Positions 10,842 through 50,441 of a stretch of 52,777 nt of DNA are shown in pieces. Positions within the stretch are counted from its first letter, which is position 1; each line of letters opens with the position of its first letter. The notes beneath the pieces are model-generated. The model searched no databases and was not told the origin of the DNA. It was given only the letters and a program-made list of their open reading frames with translations. Source of the stretch: a virus (lineage: Duplodnaviria > Caudoviricetes); IMG/VR virus record IMGVR_UViG_3300033273_000162, positions 1 to 52,777 of that record; one strand, 5' to 3'. The position numbers and the translations under genes were made by a program.

Positions 10842-10863
10842 TTTATACTAGCCCTTTACTTGG

Positions 10864-10871: not shown

Positions 10872-10881
10872 TCTCATGTCA

Positions 10882-12353: not shown

Positions 12354-12356
12354 CTA

Positions 12357-15300: not shown

Positions 15301-18300
15301 GCTGCAACTTGGTTAGAAGATAGGGATACCCAGTTGAGATCATCGAATGCAGAGGTATTAACAACTCTGTTCAAATTAACAGTTACCGAATTGACATCAT
15401 CAATCGTATCTGTATCTACAATCTTAATGTTATTAACAATGTCACCATATAGTCTGCTCTCAATCAGTGCGTTAGCAGTTGCTTGAGTTCCACCACCAGG
15501 AGGTGCAGAGAATGTGATAGTTGGTGCAGAAGTATAACCATAACCACCTGTGTAACCGTTAGATTCGATGATAGTTACTGTGACAACTTGACCATTTGCA
15601 ATAGTACAAGTCGCTGCAGCGGTAACACCTGTAGATGGCGAAGTAATCGATACAGTTGGAGCTGAAGTATATCCAGAACCAGAATCTGTAATCGAGATAG
15701 AATATACAACACCTTGGCGATATTCTGTGGTCTGAATAGTACCACCGCTATTACTTCCAGTGTAAATGCTTCCAACAGCACCAAAGTCCAGTGCGGCATT
15801 TACAGTGATTCCTAGATATAGACTATCAACATCATTGTCTAGGATATAAGATGCTGCAGGGACAGGTGGATTTGCATTAGGATTTCCCTCAACAATTGCA
15901 ATGTCACCAGCAAGAGCACCCTCTAGTTTCAGTCTTTCTGCATCACTTGCAACAGTGAAGACACTGAATGGTCTGAGTGCTGGAATCTGGTCGATAGAAA
16001 TCTTACCAGAATCAGTAAGTTCAACCAGTGCTCTAGGAACTGGGTTCGTAGAATATGCTTTGTTGATGTATGGACCGAGATTGTTGGTAATATAATCCTT
16101 AACTGCTTTCTGTGTTGGTAGAACACTATTGCTAGATGTTGCACCACCCAAAGTATTGTCATCACTAAATCCAGTAACAACAATGTCACCACCTTTCAGT
16201 TTCAAGAATTCAACTTCAGAGATGGTAACCGTACCAGTAAAGGTAATTGCACCAGTTCTGTTCTCAATCTTAGCGAAGTAACCAACCTTGAAGTCACCTA
16301 GTTCGTCAGTACCAGAAGTATAAACACGACCGTAGTTTTCAGATACCTGCTCATTTGCTTCGATCTTAGTACCGCCGTTTTCTGGTAGTGCATTGTAGTC
16401 AGTACCTGCACCAGCAAATTCCCAAGTGTGGGAAGAACTATTAACAATAGATGGTCTGTGTAGTCTTACAGTAGCACCACTAAATGTTCCTAGGTCTGTA
16501 TTGACAACATTGTTAGTTGATTTATCTCTGAATACTGCTGCCTGATTGACAGTAAATGTTGCAGTGAATGGAGGACCAGAAGTTACATTATTGACACTAT
16601 CAATAAAGTAATCTACTGCAGAGTTCTCGCTCTCATATCCATCAATCTTGAGAATGTAGTGCTCTAGAGGTTCTCTTCCAAGACCACTAACTGTAAATTC
16701 AGTGAATCCTGTACCAGTTGCGGAACCAATTCCAGTGATGTTACCAACGTCGAATGGATACTCTTCTGCTCTATATCCTTTCGCTCTAAGAGCAAATGTA
16801 CCAAAGTTGGTAGCGGAGTTAGTAACAGATGCGTATCCACCACTGTCACAGAAGATACCATCTTGACAGAAGATAACGAAGACCGAAACCAACTGAGTGT
16901 AACCATCATTGACAACCTTGTAACCTGTACCACCAAAGGAAACAATCGTGAATGCCGAAGCAACCATCGATTTGCCCTGTGCTGGGTTAGAAACAGATCC
17001 ATCTTCCTCAATACCTGGGAATGGAACGTTTGGTTTAGCACACTTGTTACCATCGATTTCACAACCATTACCACCCTTGAAGGAGATAATAGAAGAGTTC
17101 TGAATGTATGGAGATGCCTCAATGTATGGTAGATCATCCCATACACCTCTAGGTGTGATATACTTGTTATCTGCGTCGTATAGAATTGCCTGTGTAGGTC
17201 TGTTTGGTGTTGGATCATACAGAGTTCCGTATGTCTGAGTTACACTGCCTCCCGCTAGAATGTCATCTAGAGTCTGGAACGAAGTTGTAATTGCAGTTGC
17301 GACATCGGAACATGCAGGGGATTGACCTTGACCATATACAGAAACTGCTTCTGCAACTTCTGTTCTTACAAACGTATGTACAGACTGTGGTAGGTGCTTA
17401 ACTGCATTTGTTGAAGCAGTAATAAAAGTATGTGTTGTTTGTGGTTCATGCTTGATAGCATTCTGTGCTGCAGCAACAAAAGTATGAGTGGAAGTATCGC
17501 TAGAAGTACCAACGTTAATTGTAAATGTTCCGTCTTGACGCTCAATAGCATTTGCCGCAGCACTTACAAATGTATGTGCTCCAGTGTAGGAAGAAGGACC
17601 AACATTAACATCAAACGTGTTTGGTGTTACGTTAGAAATTTGTAACCAGCGACCAGATGGATAATCATAACCAGCACGAGGATATGTCTTCTGAACACTG
17701 TTGTCATCTAACTCACATGTATAAGTCAAAGATCCATCAGCAACCTTGACATAATCACCATTGCTGAATCCATGATTAGTAACAGTAAATGTTACAATGC
17801 CTGTAGATGCATCATATGGTGCATTTGTTGGTGTATGTTGAGTTGAACCAACGGAAGTGATAGCAATAGACTGACCTGCATAAGGATCAGTTCCAGGACG
17901 AGGATATGTGTGAGTGGAATTATTTCCATCTAAAGCACATGTGAAGGAGAATGAGTTGTCTGTGAGTACAACACTACGTCCAACACCTAGACCATGCTGT
18001 CCTACTGTGACAGTCATGTCACCAGTAATAGGATTGTATGTAGCAGCAGATGGAGTGAAATACTTATTGGGACCAGAGGCACCAACATTTAAAGTAATAG
18101 TTGTATCAGTTTTTGCTGTGATAGGAATAGATCTACCAGCATAAGGATCAATACCAGGACGTGGATATGTCTTCTGCGACTGGTTGTTATCCATGTCACA
18201 GGTGAATGTCAGTGAATTGTCAGCAAGTACAATTCCCTCATCAATATCCAGTGTATGAGTTCCGATTGTTAGTACAAGATCTCCAGTTGCTGGGTCATAT

Positions 18301-21300
18301 GTTGCATTGGTTGGAGTGAATTGTACATCAGGACCAGAAGCACCAACATTAACAGTAAATGTGTTTGTGTCCGTAGCAATAACGTTTAGCTGATTAGCAA
18401 AAGCTGTTTGTCCATTCTGTGGATACTTATGCTCGGTCTTATTGCCGTCCATTGTACATGTGAATACAAAGGACTCTGGTTTAATAGTGATACTATCCGC
18501 AGTTGTTACGCTGTGTCCAGCACTTGTAATTACAAAGTTACCATTGGCAGGATCATATGTTGCAGAAGTTGGAGAGATCTGTGCTTTTGCTGGAGTTGCA
18601 GCAGCATCAATCGTGATGTTCCAATCTTCAAACTTATCTACAGTCGAAGTAACTTCAACAACATCATAAATCAGAATAGTAGAATTAGCAGCAGCACTTA
18701 CGAATGTATGTGCTACGCCAGCAGCAGAACCAGCATTACCTACATTACAAGTAATAATTGTAGATGGACCATTGACGCTTACTGCGCTAATTGCAAGACT
18801 CTTTCCATTGTTTCTATCTGTTGGAGAAGGACTTGCTAGGTTTCCACCACCATTAGAAGTACAACTGAATGTTAGTGCTCCCTCCTTAAATGCAATTCTA
18901 TCGTTGGTTGTGATAGGTGCATTAGGAGTAGGAATAGTTACGGTTACTTCACCGCTAGTGGAGTTGTATGTGGCGTTTGTTGGAGTAGTGCCAAGATAGT
19001 TACCATTGGTCCAGTTACGCATTGCATTGATTGCGTAATCTCTTGCTTTGGTAAATGCGTATCTGGTAGCTGGTAGTTCGGATGCAGGAACTCCAGTTAG
19101 TTGTCCGCCTGTGTAGTAAAGATTACCAGCAGAAACAATACCAGAGTTTCCTCCTAGAATTAGGTCTCTTCTTAGTCCAGCAAGAATATACTTAACATCA
19201 CGCTTACACTTAGTTCTATCTGGATTGTTTAGTGCTAGAGATGGATACTCTTCTAGAGTATCTGCTAGTGCTTGCTCTGCAATTAGATCAATGTTTCTAG
19301 CAATCAAGTAAGATCCATCTTGGAATCTAGACGTTGCTTGATTTGAAATGATATCAGTAAAGAGATATCCTAGGGTATCAATAGCAGATGCAACGTTAGC
19401 ACAAGTTGCACCAGCATTTCCTCCTGTCGTATCTTCCGTAACAGTAGGATCTTTGTATAGTGGGAGACTAGAATATACAGGTACAAAATCATCTTCTGCA
19501 TACAAACCAGAACCTGTGTTCCAGTTTCTCATTGCTAGGATAATGAGTTCTCTGGCTCTTTCGTATGCCCTTACAGTTTCTGTAATTTCATTATTGACAT
19601 ATCCAATCTGAGTTCCATCAACATAACGCTTTGCTGCTTCAACAGTATGGTAGTTTCCACCATACTCCAAGTCCATAATAATAGCATTAATAAAGTGCTT
19701 AACGTCTCTGTAGCACTTAGAGTCACCATTTGGAATATTAAATCCAGGATAGATTTTTTCTCCCTGTGTGCAAGACAGGAGAATATTTTCAACCTTTACG
19801 GTTTCTCCACTTGTTAGACCTGGGATTGCATTTGCTAGGGTGATTGTACCTATACCAGTGCCATTAGCATATGAGAAACCTGTAATGTTATACTGAGTTC
19901 CACCATATGTTACAGTACCGCCACTTACATAAGTATGTGAAAATGAGTTTGGTGTAGTATAAACATCAAACGTGGTGCCAGAAACATTCCATGCAGTGAG
20001 CCACTTTTGTGCAAATTCATCATTGATTTGCTTGACTACTTCATCTGCAATGAAATCTGTGTTCTGGCGAATTAGATTAACAGCATCTTGATATCTTCTC
20101 TCGACAAATGGTTGCTCAGAGAATTTGTTTGGAGAGTTTAGAAGCGATAGTGTTAGATAGTGAGATGCCGAACTTACAGTACAATTTGAAATCTGAGTGA
20201 TTCCTGCTGGACTTGCAATATCTTTTGCAATGACAAATCTTCTCGATCTGCCGTCAGCGTCATATAGTACCTTGAATACTCTTTGCTTTCCGTTGAGAAC
20301 CGATAGATCAGGTCCGCTGGTAGGCATACCAGAGATTGTAATCTCTTCGTTCTCTTTGAAATTGTGAATGTTTAGTCTGGTGTTTGACTCACCACCCGAT
20401 AAGATGTTAGTATATACGACTACACCACCATATTCTGGATCAGTGTAGTATGTTGGATCAATTTCAACTTGTACAATTGGTAGTGTAGTAGTTGTATCTG
20501 TTCCAGTAGAAATAACTTCACCTTCTGCTCTAATAGACAGAATGTCTAAAGAAACGAAAGATCTGAGATCATTGAATACAATGGGATCTGTTGGACTTGC
20601 TTGAGTTGCTTCTTCTGCATATGTCAATGCATTTGCATCTGCACTTACAAAAGTATGTACAGATGTATCTTGAGAAACTCCAACATTAACAGTAAATGTG
20701 TTAGTAGTTACTGCGCTAATAGACAACCATCTCTTATATGCAAAATCTGGTTGTCCATCACCAGCAGCAGGTCTTGGATATCTATGCTGTGATGCATTAT
20801 TATCCAATGCACAAGTGAATACTAGGGATTCTGGACTGATTAAGATTTTATCAGATAAGTTAAATCCGTGGTTTGCAACAGTGAATACAGCAAGACCAGT
20901 TGCTGGATCATAAGTTACATTTGTTGGTGTATAAGGTGTGCCTCTGTAATATTCAAAAGTTTCACCAAGGTTAAAGGAACCAGAGAGAACATCTACATCA
21001 ATTGAACCAGAGACGTATGCATCTCCCCCTGTGGTGCTATCGTACTGTACTTGGAGAACTTCACCCCTTGCACCAGTGTTTTCACCGCTTACAAGCGTTC
21101 CTACTTGCAGCGGAGCGGGTAAGTTTGTTCCTGTGTTACTTCCGAAAGTAACTCTAATTCTAGGTGGTCCAAAGATCTGGTGACCAATTGGGAATCTTCT
21201 GCCAAAGTCTCCACCAGCATTGGGGTCATAATAAACCCTTTGCTTGTCGTCAAATGTTACAGCAAAGTCCCAGGTGAATTCAGAGTCACCAAAGGAATCG

Positions 21301-22490
21301 ATAGCATCTCTAAATGTAATACCATTGATATAGTTTTTATCCCCAAACTTAAACATGTGTTTGCGGGGATTGCTTGGTCTGATAATTACCAGACGAAGGT
21401 TGTCACCAATAATAGAACAATCTGGTGGAATGGAAATTGGGTTATCTTCAACGTAATTACCACCAGCGATGATAACTGATTCTTTGACTCCAACTGATTG
21501 AGATGCAATCTGACATGCTCTCTTAATACTTCTTACAGGAGCAGCAGCAGATCTACCGTCGTTTTCATCATTACCAATTTGCTCGGAAACATAGACACGA
21601 CCACCAACGTCATTTGTTGCTAGGTTTAGAACATATTCGGTAGTAGCAACTTTGGTCGATTTATCACCAAGTAAAGGAGTTACCGATCTTGGGAAGATAC
21701 CATCTCCAGTCTGTCCATAGTATGGAAGGAGAGGACTATCTTCTCTATAACCTTCGTGTCTTAGATTTACTGTACCACTTAATACATCACCATCAGTGTG
21801 TGTAGGGGGAGTGGTTCCAGTTTGACCAGTATTGGTAGCTCTATAGATGTTACCTTGGAGATAAACAAAGGCATTTTCAAATAAAGTGACGTTTGGTTGC
21901 CACTGAGTACCACTAGAGTTCTGATAGATTTTAAAGTTTGGTGCTCTAAATTTAGCATCAGCAGTAACAAAGTTGTCGATGTCTAGGTTTAGAATTCTCG
22001 CCGTGTCTGAAATGATAGACGTAGAAGTTCTAATAGCACCATTAACGTCAAATTCATATGCAATTTCGTCAAGGAATGCTTCTGCCTGAGCACCAACACC
22101 ATTACCACCAGTAATAGTTACAGTAGGAGCAGTAGTGTAACCAAAACCAGGATCATCAACAACAATAGCAACGATTGCTCCAAATACTGGATTCGTCGAT
22201 GCTGTTGCTTGAATTCCACCTTCTTCAATTGGTAAGTCTGGAGCACTTAATGTAATAGATGGAGTTGTTGTGTATCCAGAACCAGGAGCAGTAACGGTAA
22301 CCTTTTCAACCTTTTTTCCCGTTCTATTAACACCAACACGAGGCAATTGGGTGCTTGGATCTAACTGCACCCTCATAATTTCTTTTTCGTCCGACCCAAC
22401 ACCCGAACGGATTGTCAATTCATCCGAACCAAGAATGACTGGTTTTTGCGAAGAAATTCTTTGCTTATCCGCATTAAATTCTAAACTCAT
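12357..22490 (-). CDS. Giant multidomain tail fibre (3377 aa)
   Basis: GSGYT.AP repeats, split pectin-lyase-like beta-helix, TPTNATYDP repeats, LDADLLDG fibre motifs, and the C-terminal ATSKSFVIPHP...GSLEGPE...LPEYW..LVDEDSITVQLTPIG domain typical of phage fibres. Confidence 0.88.
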   Translation of the reverse strand: MSLEFNADKQRISSQKPVILGSDELTIRSGVGSDEKEIMRVQLDPSTQLPRVGVNRTGKKVEKVTVTAPGSGYTTTPSITLSAPDLPIEEGGIQATASTNPVFGAIVAIVVDDPGFGYTTAPTVTITGGNGVGAQAEAFLDEIAYEFDVNGAIRTSTSIISDTARILNLDIDNFVTADAKFRAPNFKIYQNSSGTQWQPNVTLFENAFVYLQGNIYRATNTGQTGTTPPTHTDGDVLSGTVNLRHEGYREDSPLLPYYGQTGDGIFPRSVTPLLGDKSTKVATTEYVLNLATNDVGGRVYVSEQIGNDENDGRSAAAPVRSIKRACQIASQSVGVKESVIIAGGNYVEDNPISIPPDCSIIGDNLRLVIIRPSNPRKHMFKFGDKNYINGITFRDAIDSFGDSEFTWDFAVTFDDKQRVYYDPNAGGDFGRRFPIGHQIFGPPRIRVTFGSNTGTNLPAPLQVGTLVSGENTGARGEVLQVQYDSTTGGDAYVSGSIDVDVLSGSFNLGETFEYYRGTPYTPTNVTYDPATGLAVFTVANHGFNLSDKILISPESLVFTCALDNNASQHRYPRPAAGDGQPDFAYKRWLSISAVTTNTFTVNVGVSQDTSVHTFVSADANALTYAEEATQASPTDPIVFNDLRSFVSLDILSIRAEGEVISTGTDTTTTLPIVQVEIDPTYYTDPEYGGVVVYTNILSGGESNTRLNIHNFKENEEITISGMPTSGPDLSVLNGKQRVFKVLYDADGRSRRFVIAKDIASPAGITQISNCTVSSASHYLTLSLLNSPNKFSEQPFVERRYQDAVNLIRQNTDFIADEVVKQINDEFAQKWLTAWNVSGTTFDVYTTPNSFSHTYVSGGTVTYGGTQYNITGFSYANGTGIGTITLANAIPGLTSGETVKVENILLSCTQGEKIYPGFNIPNGDSKCYRDVKHFINAIIMDLEYGGNYHTVEAAKRYVDGTQIGYVNNEITETVRAYERARELIILAMRNWNTGSGLYAEDDFVPVYSSLPLYKDPTVTEDTTGGNAGATCANVASAIDTLGYLFTDIISNQATSRFQDGSYLIARNIDLIAEQALADTLEEYPSLALNNPDRTKCKRDVKYILAGLRRDLILGGNSGIVSAGNLYYTGGQLTGVPASELPATRYAFTKARDYAINAMRNWTNGNYLGTTPTNATYNSTSGEVTVTIPTPNAPITTNDRIAFKEGALTFSCTSNGGGNLASPSPTDRNNGKSLAISAVSVNGPSTIITCNVGNAGSAAGVAHTFVSAAANSTILIYDVVEVTSTVDKFEDWNITIDAAATPAKAQISPTSATYDPANGNFVITSAGHSVTTADSITIKPESFVFTCTMDGNKTEHKYPQNGQTAFANQLNVIATDTNTFTVNVGASGPDVQFTPTNATYDPATGDLVLTIGTHTLDIDEGIVLADNSLTFTCDMDNNQSQKTYPRPGIDPYAGRSIPITAKTDTTITLNVGASGPNKYFTPSAATYNPITGDMTVTVGQHGLGVGRSVVLTDNSFSFTCALDGNNSTHTYPRPGTDPYAGQSIAITSVGSTQHTPTNAPYDASTGIVTFTVTNHGFSNGDYVKVADGSLTYTCELDDNSVQKTYPRAGYDYPSGRWLQISNVTPNTFDVNVGPSSYTGAHTFVSAAANAIERQDGTFTINVGTSSDTSTHTFVAAAQNAIKHEPQTTHTFITASTNAVKHLPQSVHTFVRTEVAEAVSVYGQGQSPACSDVATAITTSFQTLDDILAGGSVTQTYGTLYDPTPNRPTQAILYDADNKYITPRGVWDDLPYIEASPYIQNSSIISFKGGNGCEIDGNKCAKPNVPFPGIEEDGSVSNPAQGKSMVASAFTIVSFGGTGYKVVNDGYTQLVSVFVIFCQDGIFCDSGGYASVTNSATNFGTFALRAKGYRAEEYPFDVGNITGIGSATGTGFTEFTVSGLGREPLEHYILKIDGYESENSAVDYFIDSVNNVTSGPPFTATFTVNQAAVFRDKSTNNVVNTDLGTFSGATVRLHRPSIVNSSSHTWEFAGAGTDYNALPENGGTKIEANEQVSENYGRVYTSGTDELGDFKVGYFAKIENRTGAITFTGTVTISEVEFLKLKGGDIVVTGFSDDNTLGGATSSNSVLPTQKAVKDYITNNLGPYINKAYSTNPVPRALVELTDSGKISIDQIPALRPFSVFTVASDAERLKLEGALAGDIAIVEGNPNANPPVPAASYILDNDVDSLYLGITVNAALDFGAVGSIYTGSNSGGTIQTTEYRQGVVYSISITDSGSGYTSAPTVSITSPSTGVTAAATCTIANGQVVTVTIIESNGYTGGYGYTSAPTITFSAPPGGGTQATANALIESRLYGDIVNNIKIVDTDTIDDVNSVTVNLNRVVNTSAFDDLNWVSLSSNQVAAGDITSGVIATARLAFDSDAANSFTFLRGDQTYSPAVQTIKGAEQRYFEATFLAAANSGNKLTFPVSARTNILVGHTVSSTNSGIDPNTTVSSITDKTGYIEIEINNPLTQAIPAGTFLQFDRPEPPIIIDTNNTKNEYIDDIVIISGGSGYTANLDLKNVGPIQGGTGTGLYANFTTDGNGTIDSVVVTSGGSGFQNDFAITIPPALGNPTTAGNLSAKVNTAIRGFGDIQMDILRVTENTTSGDAYGTVGVAKFKKSQFNIGLVGNGSVELKTGSQSGLDADLLDGQQGAFYQNAFNITSGTLNKLRLSGSYDINISGQSGNTLRLRSQTSNPTSDPTPDTFSEGAVVNFINNSANVLADGGTANAVMTIRGKGSDATADGGVRQLAFTDNNNVWLRGSGTGVATWSNWYKVWTQLSDGPGTGMDSDKLDNRQGAWYQDARNINFYQISDTRINGYLSEKKFQNAITIKQVTNKTYYDIYISGQALTTTPFLNGQTVNLYDANAQGVGTIVILNVNPFTSPDGDTSLNWTQITGYLNTGTFNTAETIGTAGNRVTFQEFWINETGTYDVAKLESNGGTAYLRLGRKDGTASTPAVLFNSSTSAASYNAGIFASGGNAGTGSGSLNVQVGGANNFTINNQVIWNAGNITFASNNVANTAVLRDANGNFTAGTISGNLTGAASLNVLKSGDTMTGTLTLNPSVDNAINVSASNKYFTFAGGLQFRGSGSSWNARFSTTNSTTGTELLGVYNTNFTTSIFRVFNNRTSRFDLPADNSDGITIAGQSGGYSSIIHKNGSTTIGYRMAYCNSAGNYGPGTAVGDIVERIDGNRKWHFKTNGGPTALVMDASQNVAINQSNTNTSYKLYVNGSFGATSKSFVIPHPTKENHELRYGSLEGPEHGVYVRGKASDVVELPEYWTALVDEDSITVQLTPIGDHHAWVEKIEDNKIFIGGGESFYFVQGTRKDIDPLEVEVELSVEEEG
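17340..20935 (-). repeat. Six copies of a ~95-105 aa beta-rich domain (TPTNATYDP..G...FTC..D.N...YPR...VNVG...HTFV) inside the giant fibre
   Basis: Copies at about 20935-20625 and 18990-18680, plus four nested copies in 18580-17340; visible in the translation. Confidence 0.9.
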
Positions 22491-37719: not shown

Positions 37720-37743
37720 TATTTATATTTATAGCAATATTTA
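37720..37743 (-). promoter_or_regulatory. Cluster of late promoter motifs upstream of gp8
   Basis: TATAAATA at 37720-37727 and 37726-37733 (overlapping), plus TAAATA at 37738-37743. Confidence 0.8.
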
Positions 37744-40700
37744 GGTAGTTACGAATGGAACGATCTCGTCTCCACTCGAAATAGTGGTTGGACCACTAAC
37801 ATGTGTGCAACCAGTAAATGTAGTTGTATTTTTGCCAGTATAAGAAATTAGAGAACCAGCACTGGTAAATAGATGTCCCGAAGTTGGGAAGTGTGTGGTA
37901 TTCTGAACAATAACATCTGTACCAATAGTTCCAGAAGAAGAACTTATGGTAACTGGATTCTGGATAGATGGATTGACAAGAGTAAATTTCTCTCCAGATA
38001 ATAAGTAACTCGAATGATCTCTCTCAGTAAAATCTCCCAACGTTAGTGATGGGAAATACATTTCAACATCAGCAAGAGTATAAGAAGATACATCTGCTGT
38101 GCCAGCATCAAATCCAATATCAAATGTGCCAATAGTAGAACCGACACAACCAATGTACAATGCACTGGAGAAGTATTCAAAAGTTACTCCAAAGAGGGAG
38201 TTCCTTGCGGTAATAACTGTTCCATCACGCTTTGTGATATCTAGATCGATAAGATCAACTTCACCTGCTCTAGTTGGAATAGGATCAACGATATAAATTG
38301 ATTCGGAGTAGTAATCGACAACACCACTGTTAGGTGGAATGAATACAACTTCAGGAATTACTTCAGGACTGATGCTAACTTCTGGAGTTGTAATTTGTCT
38401 TTGTACATCTCTTTCAAATCCACCTGCGCTAGCTGAGGCAGATACCATTCTAACATCACTTTCAGATTCGACGGATACAACACCAACAGTTGCAACAGCG
38501 ATCTCTGGAATTTGCCTCAAGAAGGTTCCAGCACCCCAGAACTGAGGTGTTGTTCCATCTACACCTCTGAGTATGTTGAGGAATCTATCCGAAAGTTTTC
38601 TGTTATATTCTACAACTTCATTACCAATCAATAGACGACCAGCGCGATCAAACTTAGTGGTATCTGGAATATATGCAATAGTATCGTTTGCAGCAAAATC
38701 AAGATCCAAGTATGCACCAGTCTCAAAGAAGTTGATATTAGATAGTGCATCATTTGGAATCAAGTTCTGAACTGTTGTAGTAATTGCTTTACTTACAGTA
38801 GAAATAGAATTCAGAGATACAATATCTTGTAATTGAGCACTAACAACTATTGGTTCTTCTGATACTGTTCCAACTAAAACTTCATCTGCAAATAATTCTG
38901 TCGATAAGAAGAATTCATCTTTGACATCTTCAATAGTATTTTCTTGTTCAATTTGAATCTCTGCAGTTATTTGACGATCTGTATTAATAAATTCAGTAAT
39001 AATTTGAGCTTCGCTAGCAATAGTTGGTGTTAGACCAGAATTACCAATAGCGTCGATAGTAGAACTTACTTGCATATTAAATGCATCTTCAACCGTTGGA
39101 TTGACACTAACATTGATTAGAGATACACCAATATCTCTTTCAGTTAGAATATTGTATCTTCTAGCAACAATTACTTGTGGTGCTTGAGTATAACCAGAAC
39201 CACCATCAATTAGATCAACACTGATTACTTGTCCTTTGCTGACTAGTACATTTGCTCTAGCACCGCCACCATTTCCATCTTTTGGTACAAAATTGAGAAC
39301 AGGTGGTGTATAATATTGGTATGCTGTTGGTTGTGTAATTGGTTCATAACTACGCTGGTTCCAAGTTAAAGAAACAACAGAACCATTTTCAATATTAGCA
39401 ACAACCGCTAGTCCTTCACCTCTAGTAATTCCAACATAAGACTCAACAGAGACAGTACCAAAAACGTCATCAGTTAGTTGCTCACCAATTCTTCCATCTT
39501 TACTTGTAGTTTCTCCAGGTAGTTGTTTGATACTTCTAAACGTATCTTCACCATCTACACGAATTTTGTCTCCATTTGCAATAGGAACAAAAGAATTCTT
39601 GAATGTTCTTCCAAAGAATGTTCCTCTCCAAATAGCATCATCTGCTCTGAGAAGCTTTCTTCCTAAATCATCCTCACTAAATGTAAGTGTTTGATTAGAA
39701 ATGTCAGCATCTGTAATTACAAACGTTCTGTCGTAATATCCAACAGGAGCGAATGTAAAGTCAAGACCAGATTCAAACTCTGGATTATGCCCTCTCAATC
39801 GGAAACTAATAGAATTACCATTGACTACAGGTGCAATTATTTCACCAATAACATTACGAGTTCCATCACCTCTATTCTGCCAAACATGGATTGGCAAACC
39901 AACTGCGTCGCCCATCCAATCATACTTAAGTAAATCTGATATTCTGGTTGATTCAAAATCAAATGTTCCTTGTGAATAGTAAGTATCAGGAGCAAAATCA
40001 TAAATGTTTAGAATTTGTCCAACATCTCTACCATAGAGGTATCTGATGTCAATCTTCATTTCTTTCTGAATAGGAACATTAAATGAAATGTTCGGACCAG
40101 AAACTGTATAAGAGAATTCTTTACGTTGAAGAACACCATCTAGGAAAACATATAAGCAATCTTCTTGCTCAATATTTTGTACAGTAAAGTCTTCTACATC
40201 TAGAATCAGGAAAGGACCATTTCTAACACCATCTACTAGATTGTAGTCAATGGTCAATCTCTTGTAGTTTCCAACACCAATACCGACAACCTTTTCTACT
40301 GCGGTTGGTTCTCCAATAGTTTTAGCACCAAGATCCTGGTCCCAAATAGGAGCAACATCAAATTTAATCTTGTTTGGAATTACAGTTCTGTCAATCCAAT
40401 AAGAATCTTCTAATGGATAATTTTCTGTGAATTTTGGTTTTTGTAGAACAGCATTAATAGTCAAGAAGAGATCTTCATCCTCTTCTGTATTAACTGAACT
40501 ATTATCATCCCAGTATAATTCAAACTCTTTAGTCTCACCATCAATATAATCTGGTAAAGATCTGGTAACAGACTCTTCTAGTAATACGTCATTCAAGTTA
40601 TCATATAGAGAATCCATTGCAGAAACAACAGTATTACACTCTTGCGCTGGAAGTAGAGGATCACCAATAATATTGTAGTTGGAGTATGTTAGATCAGATG

Positions 40701-43700
40701 CCCAGTTTCCAGATTTATTTGGATTTTGCTGAGTCTTTTCTACAAGTCCTCTGCCTTCAGTTAGAATAGTATCTACAATATCATGATAGGTGTTGAGAGC
40801 ACTTTCTACCTCAGCACAAACTGGAGTAACGGAATCTACAAGAACATTTGGATCTGTTGTTGGCAATTGATTCTTCATTGCCTGAATCATTAGATTCTTG
40901 GCGTATTCAAATGTAGCAACAGTTTCTGTTAGTTGATCAGAGATGTAGTATAGTTGCTCTCCATATGGATACTCATTCTTTCTATAATAAAGTTGAGCGG
41001 CAGTAACGATTTTTTCATTGCCACCAAACTTAAGATGATAAACATATGCATCAATGATATGTCCAATATCTCTACCACACTTAGTAGAAAGAGAACCCCA
41101 ATTCAGAGAAGGATATTGTCCTTGTGCCCAAGTCAAAGACTGAGAAATGATATATTCTCTATTTGCTACAATGAGATTAGCAGCATCGTAGAATGTACCA
41201 TTATTAACACCACTCCAAGAGAATGTTGCTTGGTCAGTTCCAGAGAAACTGACAGGAACTGTAACCGTGACTCCAGGAGGAACATCGAAAGTGTCTCCTA
41301 CTGGAACTTGACCAGTAGTTGTAGCAATTGTTCCGTCACTTGCACTTCCAGTAAGAGTAGTAGTTCCTACAGCAGCTCCACCGCCACCACCAGAGTTTGC
41401 TAATGCAACATTGCTTACTGTAACTTTAGTATCACTATCGATAGATACAATCTTGGTTCCAGATGGATAAGATCTACCAGAACTTACAAACATGCCAATT
41501 GCAAGATTGTCAGTGCTTGTAACTGTTATCTCATTAGAACCTTGTAGATAATTAACAGAAACATCAGTAAAGTCCCAATTTCTAATTGCAAGTTTTGCCA
41601 GTCTGGTAGCATAAGAGAAAATACCACTAGACTCTGTTCTATTGTTTTGAATGTAAAGATAATCGCTACTCTGGTTAAAGATAGATGTGTAGTCAATAGT
41701 TTTTACATTACCACCAAATCTAATGTCATGCTGATATGCATCTAGGACAAATCTTATGTTTTCTTCGTAATCATCTTGCTTTGTGCTCCAATCCAAAGAT
41801 GGATATGTTGCTTTGGCATAACCAATAGTTTCGTTAATAATAAAGTCAATATTTCTTTCAATTTGATTTGCAGCATCAATCCAGACACCATTGCGTTGGA
41901 AAATATTTCTTAGTTTTCTTAGGTGTTTTGTATTGTATTGTGAGTCTTTAAACTGGAATACTTTACCATAGAAAGTAACACCTTTATACGATGTTGTTTC
42001 ACCACCATCACCAGTCAATTTAGTTCCTGGTCCTAGTGGAGGGGCAGAGAAAATAATTTGATCTCCAGAAATAGTATAAGCAACATCTGGTTCTTGCAGA
42101 ACTCCATCGAGTGTTACAATCAAACCTTTAGAATCTGCTGGGAAGAAAGGAACTCCTTGATCATTAATAATCTGGAAAGATGTGGTTCCTTGGAGTCTTC
42201 CATCAGTATCGTAGTATCCATCAAATGGAGCACCTAGAGTAAATTCAAATGCTCTTACTTCATTGAATAAAAATTCACTGGTAGCAGCAGAACCTCTTCC
42301 TCCACGAACTCTCTGACTCTCTACAGTCTGAATTGTTTGTGTAGTTACTTGTTTTGTGCTTTCAATTGTAATTTTGTTCTTATTTGGATCCCAAAGTTGT
42401 ACAACACTAAAGTGCTGCGTTCTGGGAGCAGCTGCTGGCATTTCAGTATCAGCAGTAGCTTCTACATCTACTTGACCAAATAGTTTAAAACCAGCTGGGT
42501 GAGTTGTTGATTTAATCAACTCCCTCCACTGATCAATTGGAGTCTTAGATTTTACAACGTAAGAATAGTCTTGATAGAAATCACTATCAATCATCTTCTG
42601 GTTAGATACTCCCAAACGTCCTCTGTCGGAAGTGTAATAACCTAGGTTATCATAGAAACTAGTAATCTGCTCTGTAAATGTGCTAGTATATACTGCTGTT
42701 ACAATTCCAGAAATTGGGTTCAATAGAGATTCAATAGCAACATTCTCACGAACAATGCCCTGAATGTCTTTTAGTTTTAATAGTCTGGAACCAAACCTCC
42801 ATTCAGTAACTTTTGCTCTGAATACTTCTACACCATTAACTCTCTGAACTACTGTTTCCCCTCTGCTGAAGTTTCCAGTATAATCCTTAAGGGAAACAAC
42901 ATAATTTGAAGAGAATGTAGAGGATACAGTTTTGTCTAGATGGAATGCACCACCATTAGATACAAAACTGACACTTTGTGGAATACCAATAGTAGAACTA
43001 TCAGCAAACGCTTCAATGTCACTTTCAACAATTTCGATTGTTGGTGCTTTAGTATATCCTCTTCCAGGAGATCCAACTGTTAATGAGAAAATTTCTCCAT
43101 TACGTACAACAACATTAAATGTTGCATCAACACCATCTCCTTCAGTAATGATAACCTTAGGATTGACGTAACTAGATCCTTTATCAGTTACAGTGACACC
43201 AGAAATAGTTTGAGAAGCGATATCAAACAAGACAGTTGCTTTTGCTCTGGAATCGGTATTAATATCTGCACCAACAATTGTTGGCACTTTTTTGTAGTTT
43301 AGTCCTAGATTAATAATACTTACATCGTTAATCTCACCAACTGCAAATTGACCAGTTGTTGTGTATGTAATGGTTCCAGAACCATCCCATAATGGTTCGC
43401 TGGGAATATCATAGACAAAACGGTTTGACGTGACATAATTCAACGTCTTGACACCCTGCAAAGGATCTGTTACAATCTTAAAGTATGCACCTTCAGAATT
43501 AACAACATTCTTCTTATCGAAATAATAGAAGTTTGTAAAGTCAGTTCCTCTCTTTGTTTGGTAATTGTTATCTGCTAGTCTAGACCCAAATCCAAACTTA
43601 ACATCAGTAAATGCCCCAGAATTACCAGGGAGAATCGTCGATTCAGTTTTTTCTGCTGTAATTAGATTGTAGTTCTTACTTGGACTGATATCAAAGTAAG

Positions 43701-46700
43701 TTCCAGTGAGACTAGAGTGAGACGTGTCAAAGACATACTTATAGTATTCTTGAAGATCAATATTTGGATTAGGTGTAAATGTAACACCATCTTCAGAAAA
43801 TTCAAACTTGTAAATTAAATCTTCTGCTGAGTTGATAAAAACTAGTCTTTGTGGATTGCTTCCATCAAAGAAAGTCGAACTTAATGTTAATTTGTTCGCA
43901 TTTGTAGTAAGAGTTGCATAATCATAAACAACTACAATTTCTTGTGTGTCTCTATTGTAAGACTGAATATAACCAGAATTATTTCCAGTAAAGATTTGAT
44001 AGTTTGCTGTAAAGTTAAATGTTGGTTTGTATAAAGATACAGTTTGACCATCAAAGTGATCTACAGCGGTAGTTCCTTCTCTTCCAGTAAGAACAGATAG
44101 AGCACTGTCATTAATACCAGTAATCTCTAAAACTTCCTTTCCTACAGTGATTAAGTCACCAGCAGCAAACTTAGTTGCATCATCAACAATTAGTTGTGCA
44201 GTTCCTGCAGCAAATCCAACGTGATCAATGTACAATACCAAACGCATGGTGCTTTGAGAAGCGCCAGATCTTTCTAGACTCTCATCATCAACGCCTAAGT
44301 AATCTGCTTTTCTATATCCAGATCCTCTTGTTTGGAGTTGAATGTTGGAAACAACGCCAGCATCAGAGACAGTTACAATAGCAGTTGCACCAGAACCACT
44401 ACCACCAGTCAATGGAACATTGTTATAAGTTCCAGGTGTATAGTCGGCACCACCATTTAGAATTTCAAATCTACCAAGACCAGTGTCATTGATTGTAGTA
44501 TTTGACTTGGGTGGAATTAAAGTTGCTTTTTGATATAATCTCTTTCTGAGATAATATGTCTTTGTCTTAGTTGTATCATTTGGATTGATGTCAATCGTTA
44601 CTTTGTCACCAATACCAAGACCATGAGCATCAGCAGTTTCGATTAGAGCAACACTTTGATTTACCTCAAATGGTTCCAGACCATCACTGAGAGAAGTAAG
44701 TTTTACAATCTTAGTTCCTGATGTATTGAATAAATCATCCGACTGAATAAAGTAGTCTTCATTGACAACCCAAGTTCCAGTCAAAACTTTGATTTGTACA
44801 GTGTTCTGTGACGCAGTTCCTTCTAGTACCTCTGCTGTTGCAACAGGAGCATTGACTCCATCAGTCAAGCTAAGAGTCGCACCTTTTGTATAAGAACTTC
44901 TTTGGTCTAAAAGAACAGTGAAGGTCTTAATGCTGGCAGAGAAAGTTCCTGTCTGATCAAACGTTCCATTGACATTTTTAAGAACAATGGTATTGTCATT
45001 CCTTACAGTACCAACAATAGAACCAAACGCACCAGAAGATGGTTGGTTGAGTGTATCATCAGCAAATAGATATGCACTTTGAATAGTTGTTAGTTTAACA
45101 ACTTTATCTTCTTTCGACTCTAAGTAACTTACAGATTTGCCTTTGACAGAAGAAATGATTGCTTCTACTTCAGATCCTTCAGTTCCTTGGTTGTTGAAGT
45201 ATAGTTGGGAATTGACGGAGAAGTTAGCAGAAGATCTTCTGACATCAATTGCATCTACTGTTCCAGATCTTACTTCATTGATAGTAGCAATAACGTTGTC
45301 ACCATTGCCCTGCATTCCAGGAAGAAAATACTTCTTGGAGTTCTTTGGTACATCATCTTGATTGATATCAGAATTGTAGTTGCTATCAACAGGAAGAGAA
45401 TAATAGTTCTCTCCTAGAATGTATGGGTATTGCGGTACTTGGTTGCTATCAATAGTAAGGAAATAAGCATAAGTTCCTTTCGGGAAGTCTGGGGTAATGC
45501 AAAATCTTCCATTGTTCTCGTCTAACGTTCCGCTCTTATGGGTATAAGTGTAATCGTTATTAAAAGATCCTAGTGGATATTGTGTAATCGATGGACCTTC
45601 TTTACGGGTTCCATTTAAAGTATATCCAGAAGTCATCCTAACAATAGGAGACTGTGCATCTAATGGGTCTTGATGGGCAAAAGGACCATAGATTGGATTG
45701 CCATCATAAGCAAAACCAATGATAGGTGAATGAGTTTTCGTCGCAGGTTCTGTTCCTGCATTATTCAAGTTATCATTGAGCTCAATACGCAAAGACTTGG
45801 GATTACCAACATGACCATAACCATATTCTAATGCATTGTTATAGTTTTGAAAAATGTATCCATACTCAGTGTCTAGATCATTTTCCAATCTCTTGAATCT
45901 GTTGAAGTTCCATTCTTTTAGTAATGGAATACCAGTTGCATCTTCGCCAACTGGAATGATATCAACAACTACAGTATTTTGATTATAGAAGTTACCTTCA
46001 TCGATCTTTTCAAATCCAGTGATCTTACCATCAGTATTGACAGTAGCATTGTATGTTGCAAATCTTCCTCTTCCTGCACTATCTCTAATTCTTACAATAG
46101 GTGGGGAAGAGTAGTATTCACCAGGATTATCAATAATCAAACTGGTTACTTTACCACCAGTTACTACAGCACGAACTTCTGCATCTCTACCAGAAGTAAT
46201 TGTAATCTCTGGAGTTTTGGGGAAAATGTCTTGAGTATCTACGATAATGCGCTCAACGACCTGACCAGACAATACTGCTCTTGCTTTGTTTGGTACTTGA
46301 TCAATTAGTACGAAGGGTGGTTTAGCATATCCTCTGCCCTGAGTATCAATTTTGATTTCTTCTAACTTACCATAACGAACACTGCTATGATCTTTGTAAC
46401 CATAGATGGGAACACCGTTTAGAAGAATCCCAACGTCTCTTCTTGGTGTTTTATAAACTTCGGTAGTTCTGGTTGCTTTCTGTCTGATAATACGAAGAAT
46501 CTTCTGATCAAGTAATTCTTCATTTACAGTAGATCCATCTAGAATTCTATAAGATGGGAAACTAGAACTTGTGATATAATAGTATTGATCGTCTGCAAAG
46601 ATGGACGACACATTAGTCGTTACTTGAGAAAGCGACGATTGAATAGTTGGGAATGTTGGGATAACAGGAGCAACACCCTGATTAGTAATCCATCTAGACT

Positions 46701-48000
46701 GATTAGTTCCTGTTTTTACAATCTTTGGATCAGATGTCTCAAAACCAGGACGAGAGACCTGAATCTGATCTCCAGGACTAGAGTATGGTTGTACTTGATT
46801 TGGTTCTAGATTATAGACGACACCAAAAGTCAGCAGCGAAATTGCACCACTGTTGATTGTAACTGGTTTATAAACAGACGTTCCTGCTGGATATGTCAAT
46901 GCTCCAGATGGTTGTCTGTTGTCAATAATAAACTGAGTAACAGTTTTGCTACTGAAGGTAATGGTTTCAGTACCAATCAGGAATGATCCCTTCTTCTCCC
47001 ATCCAAGAGTGGAAGATACATTTACTCTGTCTCCAGTGCTATGTGTGCCAGGAAATGTAGTTTCTAGTTTTGTTTTGGTGGAGATTGCAAAAGTACCATT
47101 TACCGTTTCTGGTGCTAGTACAATATTAAAGATCTGCTCGTTATCAGATGTGCCATCGGCATAAACATTATCAACAACTGCATCTGCATATCCATACTCA
47201 TCGGTAGCAGTCTGAATAACTTTCTTACCAATAAGATCTTTTGGATTACCAGAAACAACCTTACATTTTAGTGCAAATACATTGATCCAGTCAGAATCAG
47301 AAGACTTGTATGTAAAGTCTCTTGGTTTATAAACTTCTGGTTTGTTTGTATTATCTTTAGCAACAATGGTGTTAAAGATAAACTTAATGGAACTAGTTGT
47401 TCCCTTTGCTTTATAGAACTTGGAAATGTTCTTGATAAGGGTTCTCTTATCTACTTCACCTCTGAGATACTTCTCTGGGAAAGATCCTAGATACTGATTC
47501 TCAAAGTTCTTAACTAGAGCATATAAGAAAAGATTGCTTACATTAAAAACTTTCTGCCCAGCATTATGCGGTGCCGCATCTGTACTAGTAAAATTGCTTG
47601 CTTCATATAGATCACCAAGAGATGTGTTGCCACTAACACCTCTAGAGCAGTCTTGGAACTCTGTGTCGGTCCTTGTAGCATAGAAGATGATCTCATCATC
47701 AATGCGGATGTATCCGTTCTTCTTTGGGAAGGATTGTGCATCGGTTACAGTAATCGTAGTATCGCTATCTGTAACACTAGCTGCTAGACTATCATGCTGC
47801 TTGAGAATGTTTTTCTCGTAGTAATCGATATCAGCATACTTCTGAATGTTATTGATAACATCCAAAGTGCCACCTTGAACTTCCTGTGCTTCATAATACT
47901 TTTGAACGAACTTGCTAAAGAGTTCGTACTCAGTAGAAATGAATTCAGGAAGCTGCGACTCGATTAGAGTAGAAATTCTCTTAGTCTTTACAGCAGGCAT
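37741..48000 (-). CDS. gp7: Baseplate wedge initiator gp7, greatly expanded (3419 aa)
   Basis: ISTLIESQLPEFI, LIKNISKFYKAKGT..SIKFIF, DSDFYQDYSYVVKS...W.ELIK.TTHPAGFKLFG; lies between gp6 and gp8. Confidence 0.9.
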   Translation of the reverse strand: MPAVKTKRISTLIESQLPEFISTEYELFSKFVQKYYEAQEVQGGTLDVINNIQKYADIDYYEKNILKQHDSLAASVTDSDTTITVTDAQSFPKKNGYIRIDDEIIFYATRTDTEFQDCSRGVSGNTSLGDLYEASNFTSTDAAPHNAGQKVFNVSNLFLYALVKNFENQYLGSFPEKYLRGEVDKRTLIKNISKFYKAKGTTSSIKFIFNTIVAKDNTNKPEVYKPRDFTYKSSDSDWINVFALKCKVVSGNPKDLIGKKVIQTATDEYGYADAVVDNVYADGTSDNEQIFNIVLAPETVNGTFAISTKTKLETTFPGTHSTGDRVNVSSTLGWEKKGSFLIGTETITFSSKTVTQFIIDNRQPSGALTYPAGTSVYKPVTINSGAISLLTFGVVYNLEPNQVQPYSSPGDQIQVSRPGFETSDPKIVKTGTNQSRWITNQGVAPVIPTFPTIQSSLSQVTTNVSSIFADDQYYYITSSSFPSYRILDGSTVNEELLDQKILRIIRQKATRTTEVYKTPRRDVGILLNGVPIYGYKDHSSVRYGKLEEIKIDTQGRGYAKPPFVLIDQVPNKARAVLSGQVVERIIVDTQDIFPKTPEITITSGRDAEVRAVVTGGKVTSLIIDNPGEYYSSPPIVRIRDSAGRGRFATYNATVNTDGKITGFEKIDEGNFYNQNTVVVDIIPVGEDATGIPLLKEWNFNRFKRLENDLDTEYGYIFQNYNNALEYGYGHVGNPKSLRIELNDNLNNAGTEPATKTHSPIIGFAYDGNPIYGPFAHQDPLDAQSPIVRMTSGYTLNGTRKEGPSITQYPLGSFNNDYTYTHKSGTLDENNGRFCITPDFPKGTYAYFLTIDSNQVPQYPYILGENYYSLPVDSNYNSDINQDDVPKNSKKYFLPGMQGNGDNVIATINEVRSGTVDAIDVRRSSANFSVNSQLYFNNQGTEGSEVEAIISSVKGKSVSYLESKEDKVVKLTTIQSAYLFADDTLNQPSSGAFGSIVGTVRNDNTIVLKNVNGTFDQTGTFSASIKTFTVLLDQRSSYTKGATLSLTDGVNAPVATAEVLEGTASQNTVQIKVLTGTWVVNEDYFIQSDDLFNTSGTKIVKLTSLSDGLEPFEVNQSVALIETADAHGLGIGDKVTIDINPNDTTKTKTYYLRKRLYQKATLIPPKSNTTINDTGLGRFEILNGGADYTPGTYNNVPLTGGSGSGATAIVTVSDAGVVSNIQLQTRGSGYRKADYLGVDDESLERSGASQSTMRLVLYIDHVGFAAGTAQLIVDDATKFAAGDLITVGKEVLEITGINDSALSVLTGREGTTAVDHFDGQTVSLYKPTFNFTANYQIFTGNNSGYIQSYNRDTQEIVVVYDYATLTTNANKLTLSSTFFDGSNPQRLVFINSAEDLIYKFEFSEDGVTFTPNPNIDLQEYYKYVFDTSHSSLTGTYFDISPSKNYNLITAEKTESTILPGNSGAFTDVKFGFGSRLADNNYQTKRGTDFTNFYYFDKKNVVNSEGAYFKIVTDPLQGVKTLNYVTSNRFVYDIPSEPLWDGSGTITYTTTGQFAVGEINDVSIINLGLNYKKVPTIVGADINTDSRAKATVLFDIASQTISGVTVTDKGSSYVNPKVIITEGDGVDATFNVVVRNGEIFSLTVGSPGRGYTKAPTIEIVESDIEAFADSSTIGIPQSVSFVSNGGAFHLDKTVSSTFSSNYVVSLKDYTGNFSRGETVVQRVNGVEVFRAKVTEWRFGSRLLKLKDIQGIVRENVAIESLLNPISGIVTAVYTSTFTEQITSFYDNLGYYTSDRGRLGVSNQKMIDSDFYQDYSYVVKSKTPIDQWRELIKSTTHPAGFKLFGQVDVEATADTEMPAAAPRTQHFSVVQLWDPNKNKITIESTKQVTTQTIQTVESQRVRGGRGSAATSEFLFNEVRAFEFTLGAPFDGYYDTDGRLQGTTSFQIINDQGVPFFPADSKGLIVTLDGVLQEPDVAYTISGDQIIFSAPPLGPGTKLTGDGGETTSYKGVTFYGKVFQFKDSQYNTKHLRKLRNIFQRNGVWIDAANQIERNIDFIINETIGYAKATYPSLDWSTKQDDYEENIRFVLDAYQHDIRFGGNVKTIDYTSIFNQSSDYLYIQNNRTESSGIFSYATRLAKLAIRNWDFTDVSVNYLQGSNEITVTSTDNLAIGMFVSSGRSYPSGTKIVSIDSDTKVTVSNVALANSGGGGGAAVGTTTLTGSASDGTIATTTGQVPVGDTFDVPPGVTVTVPVSFSGTDQATFSWSGVNNGTFYDAANLIVANREYIISQSLTWAQGQYPSLNWGSLSTKCGRDIGHIIDAYVYHLKFGGNEKIVTAAQLYYRKNEYPYGEQLYYISDQLTETVATFEYAKNLMIQAMKNQLPTTDPNVLVDSVTPVCAEVESALNTYHDIVDTILTEGRGLVEKTQQNPNKSGNWASDLTYSNYNIIGDPLLPAQECNTVVSAMDSLYDNLNDVLLEESVTRSLPDYIDGETKEFELYWDDNSSVNTEEDEDLFLTINAVLQKPKFTENYPLEDSYWIDRTVIPNKIKFDVAPIWDQDLGAKTIGEPTAVEKVVGIGVGNYKRLTIDYNLVDGVRNGPFLILDVEDFTVQNIEQEDCLYVFLDGVLQRKEFSYTVSGPNISFNVPIQKEMKIDIRYLYGRDVGQILNIYDFAPDTYYSQGTFDFESTRISDLLKYDWMGDAVGLPIHVWQNRGDGTRNVIGEIIAPVVNGNSISFRLRGHNPEFESGLDFTFAPVGYYDRTFVITDADISNQTLTFSEDDLGRKLLRADDAIWRGTFFGRTFKNSFVPIANGDKIRVDGEDTFRSIKQLPGETTSKDGRIGEQLTDDVFGTVSVESYVGITRGEGLAVVANIENGSVVSLTWNQRSYEPITQPTAYQYYTPPVLNFVPKDGNGGGARANVLVSKGQVISVDLIDGGSGYTQAPQVIVARRYNILTERDIGVSLINVSVNPTVEDAFNMQVSSTIDAIGNSGLTPTIASEAQIITEFINTDRQITAEIQIEQENTIEDVKDEFFLSTELFADEVLVGTVSEEPIVVSAQLQDIVSLNSISTVSKAITTTVQNLIPNDALSNINFFETGAYLDLDFAANDTIAYIPDTTKFDRAGRLLIGNEVVEYNRKLSDRFLNILRGVDGTTPQFWGAGTFLRQIPEIAVATVGVVSVESESDVRMVSASASAGGFERDVQRQITTPEVSISPEVIPEVVFIPPNSGVVDYYSESIYIVDPIPTRAGEVDLIDLDITKRDGTVITARNSLFGVTFEYFSSALYIGCVGSTIGTFDIGFDAGTADVSSYTLADVEMYFPSLTLGDFTERDHSSYLLSGEKFTLVNPSIQNPVTISSSSGTIGTDVIVQNTTHFPTSGHLFTSAGSLISYTGKNTTTFTGCTHVSGPTTISSGDEIVPFVTT

Positions 48001-50225: not shown

Positions 50226-50441
50226 TCACTCCGTCCAACGCTCTACAAAATCATCAAAACCACCAGCGCCTCCGCAAGGGCGTTCTAGACGGTCTTCAGG
50301 CAAAGGATATAGTTCTTCCCTTTTCTTTGCCTCTCGTTGCTTCCTAGCAAGTTCTAGGTAACGATCAGCATCAGTTTCAGTAATAAGTGTCATACCCTCA
50401 TCAATAAAGTTTTGTCCTTTATCAACTCTGCTGTTGCCCAT
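50226..50441 (-). CDS. Small hypothetical protein (71 aa)
   Basis: MGNSRVDKGQNFIDEGMTLITETDADRYL; start moved to the ATG at 50441, which follows a purine-rich GGAGAAAGGAG RBS region. Confidence 0.75.
   Translation of the reverse strand: MGNSRVDKGQNFIDEGMTLITETDADRYLELARKQREAKKREELYPLPEDRLERPCGGAGGFDDFVERWTE

Follow-up and report, generated by a model that had tools for sequence, protein, structure and literature searches.

Do the giant virion proteins of marine T4-like phages contain a domain derived from the phycobiliproteins, and might such a domain still accept a bilin? The question is raised by a 52.8-kb viral contig (Duplodnaviria; Caudoviricetes; IMG/VR record IMGVR_UViG_3300033273_000162, positions 1 to 52,777), estimated to hold 27% of its genome and called here, over its whole length of 52,777 nucleotides, the window. 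On its minus strand lies a gene (37741..48000) for a gp7-like baseplate wedge or virion structural protein of 3419 residues, in which a preliminary description had read two nested phycobiliprotein-like domains, one of them uninterrupted. All of the motif strings quoted in that description fall within this single open reading frame (ORF), and each of them, together with the cysteine codon at 41079-41077, lies on the minus strand where it had been placed. Our analysis points to a phycobiliprotein-derived, insertion-tolerant module of the virion, intact copies of which probably accept a bilin; taken as a whole, we give this reading, which is drawn from sequence comparison and predicted structures, about an even chance of being right.

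Fold and sequence relatives of the inner domain

The inner, uninterrupted copy occupies residues 2270-2420 (40741..41193, minus strand) and matches the family profile with an independent E-value (i-E) of 9.2e-54. It opens with FYDAANLIVAN (residues 2270-2280, 41193-41161), carries KCGRDIGH (residues 2307-2314, 41082-41059) and contains VCAEVESALNTYHDIVDTIL at residues 2394-2413. The unit of about 145 residues (41193-40753) first proposed for it is indeed contiguous, and by the profile it is 151 residues long (41193-40741). We modeled the domain with AlphaFold2 (AF2), template-free, from the 38-sequence alignment that also gave the family profile, which consists of the inner domain and 37 diverse copies (88 of 120 proteins kept at <55% identity; 37 of 48 printed stretches used). 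The model has a predicted local distance difference test score (pLDDT) of 91.8 and a predicted template modeling score (pTM) of 0.87, with helices at residues 2-11, 13-27, 33-57, 61-68, 86-107 and 126-147 and a small hairpin at 71-82; in it the helices A, B, E, F, G and H of the phycobiliprotein fold are all predicted.

The matches in the Protein Data Bank (PDB) that Foldseek listed for this model are all phycobiliproteins or phycobiliprotein-derived proteins (best E 2.1e-3; template modeling scores 0.47-0.72). Among the 48,161 chains compared by VIA-align, the top rank is taken by phycoerythrin beta 5aqd_M (Z 14.8, root-mean-square deviation (rmsd) 1.9 over 133 of 154 residues, 20% identity), followed by allophycocyanin (Z 13.8), the ApcE bilin domain (Z 13.3) and phycobilisome chains (Z 12.8-13.8). 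The best globin-like chain that is not a phycobiliprotein reaches Z 12.6, with globin-coupled sensors, RsbR proteins and photocobilins at that value and below. Phycobiliproteins are thus the nearest fold by both methods, as the preliminary description had anticipated, and the structural match on which it had staked its proposal is present. A search of the ESM Atlas gave no match at 0.9 or above; in one cluster that it returned, 18% of the members carry RsbRD_N, which is a lead only.

Sequence comparison leads to the same family. Searched against the PDB at E up to 10, the 38-copy profile gave 49 matches: 45 to phycobiliproteins, one to a 'bacterial fluorescent protein' and three to unrelated chains. 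CpcA scores best (E 7.7e-4); its residues 40-102/104 align with profile positions 2-55/56, over helices A, B and E. In the alignments to CpcA 8iml_A and 6jpr_A the C-x-R-D of the module stands on C-A-R-D and C-V-R-D, respectively, so that the likeness of KCGRDIGH to the alpha-phycocyanin chromophore site holds in register with Lys83-Cys84-x-Arg86-Asp87. Ten of the 38 copies are recognized by Pfam family PF00502 (E up to 10, best 1.7e-5), and the 21 other Pfam families listed match a single copy each; the module has no Pfam family of its own. In the window PF00502 itself picks up the outer copy described below, though short of its cut-off (E 9.7e-4). Homology of the module to phycobiliproteins or bilin-binding globins is, on these structural and sequence comparisons, well supported.

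With the phycobiliproteins (phycocyanin, phycoerythrin, allophycocyanin and the ApcE bilin domain; PF00502) the module shares the globin-like helices (Z 12.8-14.8), profile similarity over helices A, B and E, and a K-C-x-R-D in register that is followed by G-G. It differs from them in two parts of the fold. The N-terminal X-Y hairpin, which forms the alpha-beta monomer, is missing, since model residues 1-146 align from phycobiliprotein chain residue 34-36 to the end and the profile begins at CpcA residue 39-40; a beta-hairpin stands where phycobiliproteins have their F' region. Whereas phycobiliproteins are free subunits of about 160-180 residues assembled in rings and rods, the module is a repeated and nested domain within proteins of 3000-6000 residues: in the window it sits inside the 3419-residue virion protein, and its relatives hold 2 to 34 copies.

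The BBAG globins, which are phycobiliprotein paralogues (PMC10151467), have C-X-R-D in common with the module, a likeness taken from their descriptions. In passages of Rockwell et al. 2023 (PMC10151467), C-X-R-D is given as the phycobiliprotein attachment motif, and BBAG-1 and BBAG-3, which possess it, are said to attach bilin without a lyase. In some relatives bilin genes stand beside the phage module (e.g. pcyA in Sf-CH3). The BBAGs differ from the module in being small cytoplasmic proteins, encoded in operons with reductases, V4R and iron-sulfur proteins, and their hosts are non-photosynthetic bacteria and some cyanobacteria. Globin-coupled sensor, RsbR-type and photocobilin domains share the general fold (Z 10-12.6) but give no profile match and have no C-x-R-D; they are heme-binding or ligand-free cytoplasmic sensors.

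Nested copies in the window and distribution of the module

The inner domain lies within a second, degenerate copy, whose parts follow one another on the minus strand. Helices A to G of this outer copy span residues 2040-2142 (41575..41883), beginning with WIDAANQIERN (residues 2040-2050, 41883-41851), as judged from the profile (match at residues 2040-2162, i-E 4.4e-31), BLASTP and the AF2 helices at model residues 4-104. A beta-rich, Ig-like insert with a Gly-rich linker comes next (residues 2143-2263, 41212..41574; AF2 strands within model residues 108-226), then the inner domain, then a linker predicted as low-pLDDT coil (residues 2421-2451, 40648..40740), and finally helix H of the outer copy (residues 2452-2473, 40582..40647; an AF2 helix at model residues 417-438 with pLDDT 83-89), which includes ECNTVVSAMDSLYDNL at residues 2454-2469 (40641-40594). 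On helix E, where the inner copy has its K-C-G-R-D site (residues 2307-2311, 41068..41082, with Cys2308 at 41079-41077), the outer copy reads Y-E-E-N in place of C-G-R-D; it has retained D..GGN and also the late Cys, which stands in ECNTVV where the final helix begins. The two copies are 32% identical over 106 columns by BLASTP (E 9e-20) and, as aligned, are related far beyond chance.

To model the nesting we used an alignment of residues 2036-2480 with 16 of 31 gp7 orthologue stretches. All seven stretches that lack the inner C-x-R-D were left out, so that the invariance of C, R and D in this alignment is no evidence of conservation. The AF2 model (mean pLDDT 74.4) places, in order, six helices (4-104), the beta-rich part (108-226), six helices (234-380), a loop and a last helix (417-438). 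In VIA-align the second globin-like domain, model residues 229-383, matches phycobilisome chains at Z 12.6-13.2, and the outer one matches from residue 1 to 439-442 with about 123 residues aligned (phycoerythrin alpha 1b8d_A, Z 12.0, rmsd 2.6). Since this match spans the whole region, the outer domain is closed by the last helix, with the insert in its G-H loop. The nesting of the inner copy within the outer copy, and the degenerate state of the latter, both claimed beforehand, are thus supported by the predicted model; the content of the insert had been described incompletely, in that the beta-rich part lies there in addition to the inner copy. This part resembles Ig-like domains of Arthrobacter phage Bridgette, 8eci_2 (Z 8.3, rmsd 1.9, 67 residues, 27% identity), and of the tail tube of Acinetobacter phage Mystique, 9n71_B (Z 6.8), and a weak Pfam match to GP38 falls in the Gly-rich insert. 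Orthologue P0108 has no beta-rich insert, and its region is 402 residues long.

The same module recurs, as had been proposed, in a second virion protein of the window, a tail-fibre protein of 3377 residues (12357..22490, minus strand), bringing the copies to the four that had been counted before. Both fibre copies are interrupted and both retain C-x-R-D. Copy A, with K-C-Y-R-D, lies at 19341..20093 on the minus strand (residues 800-827, an insert, then 912-1050; profile i-E 1.3e-5 and 8.5e-28; phmmer), and copy B, with K-C-K-R-D, at 17244..19325 on the same strand (residues 1056-1179, an insert, then 1685-1749; i-E 2.9e-28 and 2.1e-4). The insert of copy B, about 500 residues, falls between the helix G region and the last helix, which is where the outer gp7 copy is interrupted as well. 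The inner gp7 copy can be broken up in its turn: in orthologues P0045 and P0050 an interruption follows its first 35 or so residues. To judge from these cases, the module often takes in other domains, and it looks like a favoured place for their insertion.

A HMMER search of 1.84 billion representative proteins found the module in 817 clusters (E ≤ 0.001); the largest proteins reach 6382 residues, and a single protein may hold as many as 34 matched stretches. A tblastn search of 50,697 phage records with the inner domain matched 339, which by name are Synechococcus (269), Cyanophage (57), Prochlorococcus (12) and Marine (1) phages. The closest cultured relative of the window is S-WAM2, with 16 module matches. 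The family profile found no module in the Pelagibacter myophages Mosig and HTVC008M, in the PA5oct-like Pseudomonas phage Deifobo or in the Vibrio jumbo phage 2.275.O, and a deeper profile found none in the 34-62 kb region of Mosig. A degenerate DNA pattern of the motif matched 10 stretches in 185,579 species genomes, all of them metagenome-assembled genomes (MAGs) or bins of aquatic heterotrophs; because the bins contain many T4-like capsid genes, and psbA is absent from all five MAGs with motif matches, we take these to be phage contigs. In one bin labeled 'Rhodobacteraceae' (G003) the T4 major capsid protein Gp23 is matched 9 times and the module 33 times, on contigs whose coverage differs widely; the bin appears to be contaminated with several T4-like phages. 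Restriction of the module to cyanophages, considered as a strict rule, was rejected, as the module also occurs on jumbo-phage-like and Mosig-like uncultured contigs. In marine T4-like cyanophages, and in some uncultured relatives, the module is a building block from which giant proteins of the baseplate and fibres are made up.

The C-x-R-D site and its possible ligand

Across 1934 copies from 269 proteins, the C, R and D of the site are conserved at 85%, 86% and 89%, and the conserved positions comprise N2280, K-C-x-R-D-x-G, D2317, D2322, G-G-N, Y2338 and T2360. Outside the gp7 orthologue set the Cys is present in 1555 of 1616 copies (96%; 154 proteins). In these 1555 copies R is found in 97%, D in 100%, the Tyr2338 equivalent in 100%, Gln or Glu at 2356 in 93% and Thr2360 in 83%, whereas in the 61 Cys-less copies, which come from 37 proteins, the values fall to 48%, 69%, 54%, 46% and 41%, respectively. 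D2322, G-G-N and N2280 are not reduced in the Cys-less copies, where D2322 and G-G-N stand at 67-90%, and the Cys is replaced chiefly by Phe or Tyr. Tyr2338, Glu2356 and Thr2360 presumably lie near the bilin pocket, as we judge from the helix order and from phycocyanin structures. The pattern is that of a ligand site decaying as a unit, and the motif of this putative bilin site is the one with which phycobiliproteins and BBAG-1 and BBAG-3 attach bilins. In the outer gp7 copy, each of the six commonest states across the orthologues has Tyr at the Cys position.

Some copies in P-HM1, P-HM2, S-PM2 and S-WAM2, such as those in gp7 of P-HM1 and P-HM2, have C-x-D-D in place of C-x-R-D, which may be a second type of site; the counts of site types in these four phages are rough, as they mix fragments of interrupted copies.

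We read the module, about 150 residues long with globin-like helices A, B, E, F, G and H, as a true but remote relative of the phycobiliproteins and bilin-binding globins. The gp7-like protein would have gained both an Ig-like beta domain and a further module copy by insertion into the G-H loop of the outer copy; this outer copy would then have lost its ligand site (Cys to Tyr, with R and D gone) and would now serve as a scaffold, with the inner copy retaining K-C-x-R-D. What the analysis shows is the homology, fold and nesting of the module, its distribution and pattern of conservation, and its association with cpeT in genomes; the uptake of a ligand is inferred. Intact copies, including that of Cys2308, would bind a linear tetrapyrrole of the infected cell, phycoerythrobilin or phycocyanobilin, through a thioether to the Cys; Asp2311 and Arg2310 would hold its pyrroles and one propionate, the arrangement known from phycobiliproteins. 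Attachment might be autocatalytic, as in the BBAG globins, or aided by a CpeT-like lyase of the phage, and the virion would as a result be pigmented in its baseplate and fibres.

The module co-occurs with CpeT (PF06206) in a panel of 18 cultured genomes, 17 cyanomyoviruses and Mosig, which is small and composed of related phages that we chose ourselves (6 from reductase matches and 5 from module matches). Both are present in 14 of the 18, the module alone in one (S-SSM4), CpeT alone in none, and neither in three (P-SSM2, S-SSM7 and Mosig), for a Fisher's exact p of about 0.005 uncorrected for kinship and about 0.009 once same-species and same-genus pairs are merged. In S-PM2, S-WAM2, S-RSM4 and Sf-CH3, whose CpeT is full-length, cpeT lies 0.95-1.8 kb upstream of a module gene of 3779-4759 residues on the same strand, and in Sf-CH3 pcyA ends 38 bp before the module-bearing giant gene.

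An uncultured contig (G001:C167), two proteins of which are 69-73% identical to those of Pelagibacter phage Mosig, has overlapping heme oxygenase and bilin reductase genes at 4193-5568, between neck and fibre genes, and a Cys-less module copy in an ORF of 1421 residues (9984-14249), 4.4 kb from that pair. Because Mosig has the same island without the module, a cassette of hemO and reductase beside fibre genes is weak evidence for a link between the two.

Carriage of the module can also be set against light-dependent adsorption. In the relevant passages of Liu et al. 2019 (PMC6628666), P-HM1 and P-HM2 show no adsorption in the dark and P-SSM2 and P-SSP7 do adsorb, the light-dependent adsorption of S-PM2 is independent of photosynthesis, and light-sensitive receptors or tail fibres are proposed as its basis. 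We find five module copies each in P-HM1 and P-HM2, nine in S-PM2, and none in P-SSM2 or P-SSP7. The three light-dependent adsorbers thus have both the module and cpeT; no cpeT was found in the dark adsorber P-SSM2, and P-SSP7 was not searched for it. The agreement across these five phages is anecdotal, although its direction fits.

Several observations weigh against a bilin-bearing, phycobiliprotein-derived module. At the inner gp7 position 96 orthologues have C-R-D and at least 18 have something else, so that at this position the site is, to judge from the orthologues, dispensable. The outer copy of the window scores only 14.3 bits with PF00502, whose cut-off is 22.2, a Pfam search with the inner copy at E up to 10 came back empty, and neither window copy reaches the curated PF00502 threshold; a single-sequence phmmer search of the PDB with the inner region gave only noise (E 0.75 or worse). 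The margin in Z over other globin-like sensors is only about 2 for the inner domain, there is no gap between phycobiliproteins and other globin-like chains for the outer copy, and helical bundles may reach Z 13-14 in VIA-align by their arrangement alone. The co-occurrence with cpeT comes from the small, related and author-chosen panel described above, and the cpeT neighbourhood may be synteny inherited among related phages. Reductase genes and the module do not go together: P-SSM2 has a reductase without it, and S-PM2 and S-WAM2 have it without a reductase. A passage in a review (PMC10452541) assigns T-type lyases to beta-subunit Cys-153, not Cys-84. The window, with its estimated 27% of the genome, gave no match to cpeT, a reductase or heme oxygenase. 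Among uncultured phages, a contig with modules has a capsid gene 66-70% identical to those of Vibrio, Sinorhizobium and Pseudomonas jumbo phages, and the single module copy on a Mosig-like pelagiphage contig is Cys-less.

The main rival is a purely structural role: the module would descend from a phycobiliprotein-like globin but would now be a spacer without pigment, in which Cys, Arg, Asp, Tyr, Gln/Glu and Thr form a polar network tying helices E, F and G together. We consider this quite possible, if somewhat short of an even chance. Proteins of up to 6382 residues with as many as 34 tandem copies look like those built from other fibre repeats, the module hosts inserted domains, copies without the site persist in a conserved state (the outer copy does so in all gp7 orthologues), and the inner site has been lost repeatedly; in addition, the AF2 model is confident without a ligand, and our literature search turned up no report of pigmented virions. 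A packing role, however, would be an unusual reason to keep a lone Cys in 1555 of 1616 very divergent copies. Nor does it sit easily with the way R, D, Y, Q/E and T disappear along with that Cys but the structural-looking D2322, G-G-N and N2280 stay, with the replacement of Cys mostly by a bulky aromatic residue, as if to fill a cavity, or with the co-occurrence of the module with a lyase homologue, cpeT.

The Cys might instead serve another chemistry, be it a different tetrapyrrole, a metal or a covalent cross-link between fibre subunits, which strikes us as improbable. Heme-binding globin-like sensors do score Z 10-12 against the inner model, and in gp7-type copies a second Cys marks the beginning of the last helix (residue 2395 of the inner copy, ECNTVV in the outer); yet there is no conserved His for heme, the motif is exactly the bilin-type C-x-R-D in register with phycocyanin, and the second Cys occurs in a minority of copies only (241 of the 1046 rows with a residue in that column). 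Finally, the resemblance to phycobiliproteins might be a matter of chance, a helical bundle that happens to contain a short motif. The modest profile E-values, with one match at or below 0.001, the lack of any Foldseek match at or below 0.001 and the position of the window copies under the Pfam thresholds would all allow this. It is nevertheless disfavoured, and we rate it as very improbable indeed, because three different methods point to phycobiliproteins and to no other family, the sequence alignment extends over about 55 columns of helices A, B and E, well beyond the motif, and as many as 133 of the 154 residues can be aligned structurally (rmsd 1.9).

The module touches two questions that have long been open, the role of the bilin genes and cpeT of cyanophages, and light-dependent adsorption without host photosynthesis. 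A domain with an intact site in baseplate and fibre proteins, tracking cpeT, provides a concrete and cheap test for both; the inner gp7 domain can serve directly as a construct, with the degenerate outer copy as its built-in negative control. Our literature search found no description of such domains in phage particles, and even without pigment this would be the first case known to us in which a virus particle is built with the phycobiliprotein fold as a repeated unit that tolerates insertions. Sullivan et al. 2010 (PMC3037559), in the passage concerned, call the role of cyanophage cpeT 'unresolved', and a passage of a 2024 paper (PMC11480375) leaves the purpose of phage hemO and pcyA/X open, with a bilin-binding globin as one possibility. 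A joint reading, in which bilins held covalently by these domains in many marine cyanomyoviruses and loaded by a phage CpeT-like lyase would be the light sensor for adsorption of S-PM2, P-HM1 and P-HM2, and would supply the missing acceptor that explains the phage cpeT and bilin genes, is in our estimation unlikely.

The host gene and its surroundings

Assignment of the 3419-residue protein to gp7 follows from its ORF, its matches in PHROG and the gene order. It matches phrog_4406 from end to end, as well as phrog_2885 and phrog_708, 'baseplate wedge subunit', and homologues of gp6 and gp8 lie on either side of it, namely a gp6-like gene at 48006-49802 (phrog_219) and a gp8-like gene at 35862-37682 (phrog_438), both on the minus strand. 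Its homologues in P-HM1 and P-HM2 carry the gp7 annotation. Gene position between gp6 and gp8 and the matches to PHROG baseplate wedge families are features shared with T4 gp7; the protein differs in being about three times longer and in matching Pfam Baseplate_wedge only weakly, at E 0.059. To our knowledge, T4 gp7 is without any phycobiliprotein-like module.

The sole Pfam domain over threshold in the gp7-like protein is YHYH (PF14240, E 5.8e-30) in its N-terminal third (residues 730-856, 45433-45813, minus strand). More broadly, the window is a minus-strand block of T4-like virion genes, gp25-like, gp6-like, gp7-like and gp8-like in order, followed by three large structural proteins, one of which is the tail-fibre protein that carries copies A and B. 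Upstream of the gp25/gp6/gp7 block, an ORF of 221 residues (50422-51087, minus strand) matches phrog_3704, 'ferredoxin', at E 2e-116, a label without support from Pfam, in which this ORF has no match at E 0.01. In S-PM2 (NC_006820.1, 165928-177267), RefSeq places 16 tRNA features inside the coding sequence of the giant 'short tail fiber protein', which looks like an annotation offset rather than biology.

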